From sequence record PZ053912.1: a DNA stretch of 64,000 nucleotides; one strand, 5' to 3'. Origin of the DNA: a phage. Positions 1 to 52,061 of the stretch are shown piece after piece. The notes under the pieces were generated by a model. The model did not search any database. It worked only from the letters and a program-made list of their open reading frames with translations, and was not told the origin of the DNA. The stretch's first letter is position 1. Each line of letters starts with the position of its first letter. The position numbers and the translations under genes were made by a program.

Positions 1-115
<115 letters not shown>

Positions 116-116
116 T

Positions 117-752
117 ATGGCAACATACTACAGATTGTATATTACAACATTTGAAACATCCACCGGTATAAAGATTTATGGTGGTAAACACAAATCAGTT
201 TACGAAGACCCTTCAAAAGACCCTTATACTGGGTCTGGCACCTTTATACGAAGGGCCAAAAGAAAATACGGTCCGTCTTGTATAAAAGAAATTATATGGT
301 CTAAGCCATTTGAATCTAAAGCTCTAATGGATGAAGCTGAAGAGTTACTGGTAGATGAATTATCCATTTTAGAAAATTGCGCAAATCTTGTTAAAGGTGG
401 TGCAGGCGGAAGGTCGTATATTAACCCAGAAGATAATCCATCTATAGGACAAAAACGTTCAGCCCAATCTAAAAAGAAAATGTCTGACGCCGCAAAATCA
501 AGAAAATGGACTGAAGAAGGGTTAAGAAAACGTAAAGAATCTACAGCAAGAATGTGGAAAGATTTCAAACATAGACATCCTGATTTTTCTGGTTCAAAAA
601 ATCCAGCAGCTCGAAAAGTTAGTGTAAATGGTAAAATATTTAACACCTGCAAAGAATGTGGTGAAGAATTTAATATCACATCAAGCGCGGTTATAGGCCG
701 ATGCAAAAACAACAAACCTAAATGGGCAGGATGGAATTATGTCGACGTATAA
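117..752 (+). CDS. putative Seg-like GIY-YIG family homing endonuclease (211 aa)
   Basis: Degenerate GIY/YIG-like N-terminus (YYRLY...IKIYGGKH), RRAKRKYG and NLVKGGAGG motifs, basic S/K-rich linker ([21 protein letters not shown]), C-terminal CxxC...C cluster; sits between genes 13 and 14, which are adjacent in T4; 3' end overlaps gene 14 start. Confidence 0.55.
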
Positions 753-1503
753 TTCAAATTTATTTGCAAAGTTAGAAAACCGAGAAGGCTATTCTAAAAC
801 TAATGAAACCGAGATTTTAAACAAATACGTGAACTTCAACAAATACGAAAATAGTCAAACCCTAGCTGATGTTCTAGTGGCAGAAAGCATACAGATGCGC
901 GGTATTGAATGTTTTTATGTTCCACGTGAATATGTTGCCGTGGACCTTATCTTTGGTGAGGACCTTAAAAATAAATTTACTAAAGCATGGAAATTTGCTG
1001 CATATCTGAACTCTTTTGAAGGTTATGAAGGAGCGAAATCCTTCTTCAGCAACTTCGGAATGCAAGTTCAAGACGAAGTTACATTATCTATTAACCCGGG
1101 TCTTTTCAAACACCAGGTCAACAATCAGGAGCCCAAGGAAGGTGATTTAATATACTTCCCAATGGACAATAGTTTGTTTGAGATTAACTGGGTTGAACCA
1201 TATGACCCATTCTATCAAGTAGGTAAAAATGCGATTCGTAAAATTACTGCAGGCAAGTTTATTTACTCTGGCGAAGAAATCAATCCGGTGCTTCAGAAAA
1301 ATGAAGGTATCAATATACCTGAATTTAGTGACTTGGAACTTAACCCTGTTAGAAATCTTGACGGTATCCATGACATTAATATCGATGAATATTCTGAAGT
1401 TGAGCAAATCAATTCAGAGGCAAGTGAATACGTTGAGCCGTATGTAGTAGTTAACAACCGTGGTAGACAAAATTCACCATTTGACGATGGGTTTATGAAT
1501 TAA
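739..1503 (+). CDS. 14: neck protein gp14
   Basis: 254 aa ORF with AGGA RBS; size and position match T4 gp14; followed by gp15. Confidence 0.85.
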
Positions 1504-1552: not shown

Positions 1553-2377
1553 ATGATGTTTGGCTATTTTTACAACTCGTCGTTCAGGCGATATATCACA
1601 ATGATGGGCGATTTGTTTTCAAATATCCAAGTTAACCGTCAATTGTCTACAGGCAATAAATTAATTAGAGTTCCTATTACGTATGCATCTAAAGAGCACT
1701 TTATGATGAAACTTAATAAATGGACCTCTATAAACTCACAAGAAGATGTGGCTAAAGTCGAAACTATTCTACCACGTATAAATCTCCAAATGGTAGATTT
1801 CGTTTATAACCCGACGTTTAAAACGAATATATTGAATAACTCTCTTTTGAGTAAATCGACTAAGGATATTGTAGACCAATACAACCCATCACCAATTAAA
1901 ATGATTTTTGAACTGAGCATCTTTACTCGTTATGAAGATGATATGTTCCAAATCGTTGAGCAAATTATTCCATATTTTCAGCCGCATTTTAATACGACTA
2001 TGATTGAGCAATATGGGCAGGATATTCCATTTGAAAGGGATATTAAAGTCGTATGGATGGCAGCAGCAATGGATGAACAAATAGACGGTGATAATTTATC
2101 CCGTCGACGTTTAGAGTGGTCATTAACATTTGAAGTAAATGGATGGATGTATCCTCCGGTAGGCGCAGCTGAAGGCCTTATTAAAACGACTTATCTTGAT
2201 TTTCATGCTAATGAGCGAGACCTTCAAACAGCCGCCAGTGTTTTTGAATCAGTTGATACAGAAATTAAACCGAGAGACGTTGAAGCACAAGATTGGAATG
2301 GTGAAGTTGAACAAACTTATACTCATGATATTCCAATCCCGACTCCACCAACCCCTCCTGGTCCTAGAAAACAATAA
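1553..2377 (+). CDS. 15: tail sheath stabiliser / tail completion protein gp15
   Basis: 274 aa; N-terminus MFGYFYNSSFRRY and overall sequence match remembered T4 gp15; GGAG RBS. Confidence 0.9.
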   Translation: MMFGYFYNSSFRRYITMMGDLFSNIQVNRQLSTGNKLIRVPITYASKEHFMMKLNKWTSINSQEDVAKVETILPRINLQMVDFVYNPTFKTNILNNSLLSKSTKDIVDQYNPSPIKMIFELSIFTRYEDDMFQIVEQIIPYFQPHFNTTMIEQYGQDIPFERDIKVVWMAAAMDEQIDGDNLSRRRLEWSLTFEVNGWMYPPVGAAEGLIKTTYLDFHANERDLQTAASVFESVDTEIKPRDVEAQDWNGEVEQTYTHDIPIPTPPTPPGPRKQ

Positions 2378-4703
<2,326 letters not shown>

Positions 4704-51779: not shown

Positions 51780-52031
51780 TCATTTGTTGATGTGTTGTAA
51801 TAAAGATTCTGCAAACATCTCATATGATTCCAGGTGTTCTTCTTTAATGCGAACTGCATGATTATCACCCGAAGAATAGAACATCTGTACGATAAGAGCT
51901 TCGTAATCAGACGAAATACATGCTACGTTTTCCGGCTTCAGGCATTCATTGTATGTCGCAACTGGGTCAGTGAAAGCTGCAACGTTTTTGCTACCGCAGT
52001 AATCCATACTTCTTTGAATAATAAAAATCAT
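51780..52031 (-). CDS. hypothetical protein (83 aa)
   Basis: ORF preceded by early-promoter-like motif 52062-52090. Confidence 0.55.
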   Translation of the reverse strand: MIFIIQRSMDYCGSKNVAAFTDPVATYNECLKPENVACISSDYEALIVQMFYSSGDNHAVRIKEEHLESYEMFAESLLQHINK

Positions 52032-52061
52032 TTTATTTTCCTCTCATTTGTTGATAAGTCT

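Follow-up and report, generated by a model that had tools for sequence, protein, structure and literature searches.

The open reading frame (ORF) at positions 117-752 on the plus strand of a 64,000-nucleotide stretch of phage DNA (record PZ053912.1, here called the window) is very probably a free-standing SegC-like GIY-YIG homing endonuclease gene in a T-even phage of Mosigvirus type, with a predicted nuclease activity and a putative target near its own site of insertion. We regard it as a clear example of a selfish endonuclease gene that has been fitted into the translation signals of a late structural gene and leaves that gene intact.

A seg-like gene at the junction of neck genes 13 and 14

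The ORF has an ATG start and encodes 211 amino acids. The window begins within the last 38 codons of gene 13, which encodes the neck protein gp13; this 3' end (1-115, plus strand) aligns with the annotated gp13 of phages F2 and KAW3E185, its translation ends in ...PPAGILVG and its TAA stop occupies 113-115. A single base, T116, separates this stop from the seg ATG, and at its other end the ORF overlaps gene 14 (neck protein gp14; 739-1503, plus strand; Pfam T4_neck-protein, E = 2e-127) by 14 nt (739-752), with gp15 as the next gene in the window. The original prediction, that a 211-residue ORF fills the 13/14 junction and overlaps the start of gene 14, is thereby borne out, as is its remark that the two genes adjoin in T4: gp13 and gp14 are contiguous in T4 (MT984581), with a 1-nt spacer, and likewise in seg-less relatives.

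Base composition was considered as a sign of foreign origin and rejected, as the GC content of the ORF (36.6%) is the same as that of genes 14 and 15. No paralogue of the ORF was found in the window; a weak tblastn match at 51969-52055 has no corresponding ORF and was put down to chance. The choice of start codon for gene 15 varies between records: the gp15 ORF of the window (1553-2377) has 274 codons from its first ATG, the KAW3E185 annotation has 273, and the F2 record carries a shorter version of 257 codons (3104-3877 of locus excerpt L002).

A divergent, predicted GIY-YIG nuclease with an I-TevI-type DNA-binding domain

A single-sequence search matched the protein to the homing endonuclease family PHROG_314 (E = 2.6e-37). 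It resembles T4 SegC over its whole length, with 33% identity across amino acids 4-197 (E = 2e-16) and the same order of domains, namely a GIY-YIG domain with a YxGSG motif, NUMOD3 and then an I-TevI-like DNA-binding domain. In SegC the Pfam families SegE_GIY-YIG and NUMOD3 score above threshold, whereas the catalytic domain of the window protein is more divergent and, searched as a single sequence, matches neither GIY-YIG (PF01541) nor SegE_GIY-YIG (PF19835) even at E ≤ 1. Only profile comparisons and intermediates with PF01541 connect it to GIY-YIG: a family profile of 12 homologues aligned with a profile of I-TevI and PF01541-bearing homing endonucleases at an hhalign probability of 99.4% (E = 3e-21). 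An α/β GIY-YIG fold is predicted for the catalytic domain, and a Foldseek search of the PDB with the full-length model recovered the DNA-binding domain alone, with 1i3j_A as best match (probability 1.00), and missed the catalytic one.

The catalytic domain spans amino acids 4-100 (126-416, plus strand) and contains Y8 in a GIY-like 'RLY', Y21 in 'IYGG', YxGSG at 37-41, KYG at 50-52, E75 and N90. The degenerate GIY/YIG N-terminus of the original prediction corresponds to R6-L7-Y8 and I20-Y21-G22-G23, which are invariant in the family of 12 homologues and lie on model strands E4-14 and E17-27; the motifs it quoted, RRAKRKYG and NLVKGGAGG, are indeed present at amino acids 45-52 and 90-98. Across the same homologues, which are only 53-64% identical, the invariant positions are R6-L7-Y8, Y21-G-G, Y37-x-G-S-G, K50-Y51, E73-A-E75, N90 and G94-G95, and in an alignment of 42 sequences N90 never varies and E75 reaches a conservation of at least 90%. 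Three of these residues, Y21, E75 and N90, face Y17, E75 and N90 of I-TevI in the hhalign alignment. Because Y8, Y21, E75 and N90 remain invariant at such low identity, their conservation argues for selection on catalysis.

The catalytic arginine of I-TevI, R27, is the single canonical residue without a counterpart at its aligned position: hhalign puts Y37 and G41 of the YxGSG motif, which also occurs in T4 SegC, opposite R27 and H31. Residues K24, H25 and K26 lie near the R27 position and could substitute for the arginine. The lack of an arginine there, a catalytic domain too divergent for Pfam GIY-YIG, and the pair H25-K26 at two nearly invariant positions where the homologues have R-H would all suit a defunct or decaying homing endonuclease gene, one that is hard to lose in that its 3' end supplies the start and ribosome-binding site of the essential gene 14 and its 5' end occupies the original start. 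We consider this reading unlikely. The invariance of the four residues named above speaks against it, as does the H-K pair itself, which matches T4 SegC exactly at that point (GVHKT versus GKHKS); SegC is listed as an active endonuclease (PMC2988022). The ORF is moreover intact in all 13 phage records of our collection that contain it.

The basic linker holds a NUMOD3-like motif (amino acids 105-123; 429-485, plus strand) with a Pfam NUMOD3 E value of 6e-3, below the gathering score; the equivalent position of T4 SegC scores above the NUMOD3 threshold. The HMM search suggested with the original prediction returned NUMOD3, at this sub-threshold level, and no Pfam GIY-YIG match. The basic, S/K-rich repeat linker that had been described holds as to composition, the region of about amino acids 100-160 being rich in K, S and R; as to repeats it does not, with one sub-threshold NUMOD3 motif and no clear repeat array.

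The C-terminal domain (amino acids 145-208; 549-740, plus strand) is a DNA-binding domain of I-TevI type, with a helix-turn-helix, and ends in a conserved KW..W.Y. The family profile matches PDB entry 1i3j_A over residues 145-206 (E = 2.7e-5), and Pfam I-TevI_DNA-bd matches the single sequence at amino acids 159-204 (E = 1e-4, below the gathering score). The C-terminal NUMOD/I-TevI-type DNA-binding module that marks Seg-type genes is present, and together with the likeness to SegC it upholds the Seg-type identity that had been proposed. The C-terminal cysteine cluster claimed at the same time does not stand: C181 alone of C178, C181 and C196 is invariant in the 12 family members, and there is therefore no conserved metal-binding cluster. 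A zinc-finger reading of these cysteines was tried and rejected, because C178 and C196 vary and the region corresponds to the helix-turn-helix subdomain of I-TevI, within which C181 sits. No zinc finger like that of I-TevI is found in the linker either, and I-TevI is encoded in the T4 td intron, whereas the window gene is free-standing.

Insertion into the start of gene 14

Alignment of occupied and empty alleles, in agreement with the annotation coordinates of F2 and KAW3E185, reveals a clean indel, a net insertion of 622 nt (129-750, plus strand). Empty Mosigvirus alleles have the context ...GGTTAAtATGGCAACTTATGATAAAAATCTT..., in which gp14 opens as MATYDKNLF from the start TAAtATGGCAACTTATGAT (MATYD...). 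In the occupied allele the same place reads ...GGTTAAtATGGCAACATACTACAGA... and opens the seg protein, MATYYRLY. As read from this comparison, the seg ORF begins with the ribosome-binding site and first four codons of gene 14, ATGGCAACATAC (MATY; 117-128, plus strand), so captured from the host gene. The seg starts of Gaprivervirus track the local polymorphism of the gp14 start: that of SP18, ATGACTACATAC, equals the empty VR25 start, and that of VR26, ATGGCTACATAT, resembles ATGGCTACTTAT of phage 212. This correspondence shows that the first 12 nt of the ORF are host sequence and not part of the element. The placement of the ORF 'between' genes 13 and 14 is thus correct as to the junction and imprecise as to the point of insertion, which lies 12 nt inside the original gene 14.

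The insert is flanked by an imperfect direct repeat of 12 nt of the gene 14 start, ATGGCAACATAC at 117-128 and ATGTCGACGTAT at 739-750, identical at 8 of 12 positions. The exact boundaries of the insert are ambiguous inside this repeat, which has the appearance of a scar left by an initial illegitimate insertion through microhomology.

Gene 14 restarts at 739 with ATGTCGACGTAT... (MSTYNSNLF), its ATG lying within the codon for Tyr208 of the seg protein. Inside the seg codons W-A-G-W, 7 nt before this ATG, the sequence AGGA (728-731, plus strand) resembles a Shine-Dalgarno element and would serve the relocated start; AG-rich stretches stand at the equivalent position in the occupied alleles of MX01, Slopekvirus and Krischvirus. 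The arrangement recurs in seven of seven occupied alleles from five genera, each with the gp14 ATG within the conserved C-terminal Tyr codon of KW..W.Y and an overlap of 8 or 14 nt. Because seg and gene 14 overlap in all lineages, only a precise deletion would be viable, and this is the point at which the anatomy of the locus favours the reading of a decaying gene that is retained.

Two annotations at this junction appear to start in the wrong place. In SP18 (GQ981382; gene 14 at 2129-2917 of locus excerpt L004), gp14 is annotated from an internal ATG at 2231 ('MHHENTQ...'), about 34 codons short; the full-length frame opens at 2129 (MRNSYDASLFARLEDG...), with an 8-nt overlap of the seg stop like that of VR26. 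In VR26 (KP007362; 698-1333 of locus excerpt L008), the 'putative endonuclease' is annotated from 752, and in this form it is without the GIY-like strand; the ORF really opens at 698 (MATYYRLYV...), overlapping the gp13 stop (TAATG).

A diverged tract at the 5' end of gene 14

Compared with the empty allele of KAW3E185, gene 14 of the window has 16 differences in its first 48 nt (739-786, plus strand; all are substitutions in nt 4-48) and 2 in the other 717 nt (binomial P ~8e-18). Within the tract, 8 codons are changed synonymously and 4 non-synonymously. The left flank of the insert has no comparable patch, the near-junction sequence of gene 13 showing no insert-linked substitutions relative to the seg-less allele. 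At 98.6% identity or above, the tract occurs solely in the 13 seg-positive records, the next best match being 80%, and a search for its donor found no empty-site or foreign gene 14 that matched above about 80%. A resemblance to the homologous cassettes of MX01 and of a metagenomic contig (L016) is confined to its first 17 nt; the remainder is without close match.

The tract may be donor flank carried over by co-conversion, a form of the target that resists cleavage, or both. Characterized free-standing endonucleases often cut hundreds of base pairs from their own gene (PMC2988022), and because of this reach the 48 nt are best taken as a candidate position for the target. The tract accounts for a local patch of anomalous divergence in gene 14, which might otherwise be read as a sign of selection acting on the neck protein.

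Presence and absence among close relatives

The window derives from a Mosigvirus-type genome that is 99.4% identical to phage F2 over the region. Across the phage collection, the 13 records with the ORF encode proteins of 99-100% identity, and the identical protein is labelled 'GIY-YIG endonuclease', 'homing endonuclease' or 'putative endonuclease' in GenBank. A clean empty junction is found in about 140 Mosigvirus records whose flanks match at 90% identity or more, KAW3E185 (99.2%) among them, and the comparison of junctions that the original prediction called for thus yields 13 occupied against some 140 empty alleles. The carriers are a minority among RB69-type (Mosigvirus) coliphages. Identities at a control locus 20 kb distant place seg-positive and seg-negative phages in mixed order within the range 98.6-99.3%, from which it follows that the gene is patchily distributed in a near-uniform population. 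Gaprivervirus is likewise polymorphic, with 9 records occupied and all others empty.

The locus therefore has a free-standing ORF between conserved genes, outside any intron or intein, that is present or absent at one site among close relatives. The polymorphism of the insertion among near-identical phages supports a gain or loss in recent times, in keeping with the recent lateral insertion proposed at the outset. The 13 copies are nearly identical and could for that reason originate in few transfer events. Both the linkage of the diverged tract to the gene and the interleaving at the control locus are compatible with biased inheritance and co-conversion. The polymorphism among phages of 99% identity and the many clean empty sites also show turnover of the locus, which speaks further against a decaying gene that is merely difficult to shed.

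The same data bear on whether the ORF might be a conserved structural or assembly gene of the neck module, a reading that its position inside the late 13-14-15 cluster and its co-transcription with these genes could suggest. We give it practically no credence: the gene is absent from the approximately 140 close relatives and from T4, empty alleles that already refute such a role, and its homologues are nucleases and not virion proteins. The two findings that the original prediction had named as fatal to it, conservation as a structural or assembly gene and the lack of a GIY-YIG fold, have both turned out the other way.

The same junction carries homologues of 53-63% identity in Dhakavirus MX01, Gaprivervirus SP18 and VR26, Krischvirus G5211, Slopekvirus phT4A and KpF2, and a metagenomic T4-like contig, which with the window brings the occupancy to five genera (Mosig-, Dhaka-, Gapriver-, Krisch- and Slopekvirus). 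The location had been called unusual for a mobile endonuclease, an assessment that does not hold in view of these homologues and of T4, where segC is located in the baseplate cluster, between 5.1 and 5.3, and segD is flanked by 23 and 24 (PMC2988022); homing endonuclease genes are reported to lie preferentially near essential and structural genes (PMC10448857). A search of a library of 1.84 billion cluster representatives found 1657 relatives of the protein at E ≤ 1e-3 and 38 at E ≤ 1e-10, and by sequence similarity the protein is one twig of a very large Seg-like radiation.

That the family has stayed at a single junction across five genera, its translational overlap with gene 14 conserved, might also mean that a Seg-derived protein has been domesticated and serves the phage, as a DNA-binding regulator of the neck/terminase operon, much as I-TevI moonlights as an autorepressor, or as a competition factor against co-infecting phages, and is not purely selfish. 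DNA-binding domains of I-TevI type can act as repressors (PMC2988022), and marker exclusion would favour the neck alleles of a carrier. We nonetheless judge domestication very improbable. Most close relatives, with apparently complete phage genomes, are without the gene, which is therefore dispensable, and the junctions showed neither an operator-like repeat nor a special RNA structure. We accordingly retain the reading of a selfish, Seg-type homing endonuclease gene.

The F2 record (MN864145; L002) is classed as Tequatrovirus efftwo and its nearest relatives at the locus (KAW3E185, F27 and AV109) as Mosigvirus, and the label looks inconsistent. The NCBI entry 'hypothetical protein ABH225_001158 [Shigella flexneri]' is the identical protein (P0001) on a 90-kb contig; the likeliest source is phage DNA within a bacterial assembly, not a gene of the chromosome.

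Expression and a proposed route of homing

No exact copy of the late-promoter sequence TATAAATA was found in the 4.6 kb around the locus, where one-mismatch and sigma-70-like matches, the other candidates for a dedicated promoter, occur at chance frequency only. Nor were RNA hairpins found that would sequester either start codon (z-scores of +0.8 and -0.4). The T4 genes segC, segF and segG are promoter-less cassettes too (PMC2988022), and like them the window cassette would ride a late transcript, here that of genes 13 and 14. Translation of the endonuclease would use the ribosome-binding site and first four codons that belonged to gene 14, the cassette lying 12 nt inside the original gene, and gene 14 would be re-started from the ATG and AGGA within the last seg codons.

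Intronless homing has been shown for T4 SegB, SegC, SegE, SegF and SegG (PMC2988022; PMC2330249), and we build our model by analogy with these enzymes. In a mixed infection, the C-terminal I-TevI-type domain and NUMOD3 linker would let the protein bind an extended, degenerate site in a seg-less phage, at its 13/14 junction or close by, and the GIY-YIG domain would introduce a double-strand break. Repair from the seg-carrying genome would then copy the 622-nt cassette and adjacent markers into the recipient, the outcome being intronless homing with co-conversion and marker exclusion. The carrier allele would most likely be rendered uncleavable by the recoded 48-nt 5' end of gene 14 and by the insertion itself, which splits the empty-site sequence.

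The junction of T4, TTGGTAGGTTAAtATGGCTACTTATGATAAAAATCTT, is almost identical to the empty site of Mosigvirus; in the T4 excerpt (MT984581, locus excerpt L009, ~3000-3060) it reads TTGGTAGGTTAAtATGGC[T/A]ACTTATGATAAAAATCTT. T4 is a predicted substrate because of this near identity, and if it were cut, marker exclusion of neck genes would be expected in co-infections of T4 with a Mosigvirus. In its fullest form our proposal is of a cassette built to fit gene 14, one that takes the start of the gene, re-creates a start and ribosome-binding site within the codons for KW..W.Y, carries the 48-nt recoded end as an immunity patch, has tracked one junction through at least five genera, and would cut T4 at 13/14 with exclusion of T4 neck markers. 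We hold this combination tentatively, at somewhat less than an even chance. What the locus adds is of modest weight, a SegC-like lineage with a candidate target in the 5' end of the essential neck gene 14 that is nearly identical in T4.

Comparison with known systems

Selfish phage genes of this class are well known; the window gene is an unremarkable representative and carries such an annotation in public records already. Capture of a start codon and the recoded tract are refinements of a known theme; our analysis flags annotation errors in related records and reveals no new kind of system. A search of the literature found neither experimental work on the seg family of the 13/14 junction nor a description of start-codon capture or of a recoded tract.

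With T4 segC the gene shares the form of a promoter-less cassette within a late structural operon, overlapping neighbouring ORFs in both cases. The two differ in their insertion site (13/14 here, the 5.1/5.3 region in T4) and presumably in their target; unlike segC, the window ORF is fused to the first four codons of a downstream host gene, and its protein is known from sequence. T4 SegF and SegG have the same expected mode of spread, and in the window a donor-type tract beside the insertion is linked to the gene. The experimentally mapped cleavage sites and co-conversion tracts of SegF and SegG lie hundreds of base pairs off (PMC2988022), in contrast to the 48 nt found here, whose role is putative.

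Different lineages of the same family are the genes labelled 'segC' or 'homing endonuclease' in SP18, VR26, MX01, G5211, phT4A and the Klebsiella Slopekviruses, which share the junction, the orientation, the overlap of seg stop and gp14 start, and 53-63% identity with the window gene. The copies of Slopek-, Krisch- and Dhakavirus have a start of their own, whereas those of Mosig- and Gaprivervirus have the captured gp14 start; the Slopek- and Krischvirus copies additionally have a spacer and a Shine-Dalgarno sequence of their own. The SP18 homologue has carried the name segC from the time its record was deposited, and the sole related mention in the literature found gives 'segC' as unique to phage phi1 relative to RB49 (PMC2839356).

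A relative in the catalytic domain alone is the 269-residue protein P0018, encoded on metagenomic contig SRR31864812_7989 (3001-3810 of locus excerpt L015). It shares the unusual catalytic subtype, with 44% identity over amino acids 4-128 and the motif 'YRTYI...YYAGKRKS', and differs in its C-terminal half. Its gene follows an nrdD/nrdG/glutaredoxin cluster, another insertion site within the clade, and the protein is an example of the domain shuffling that is typical for such enzymes.
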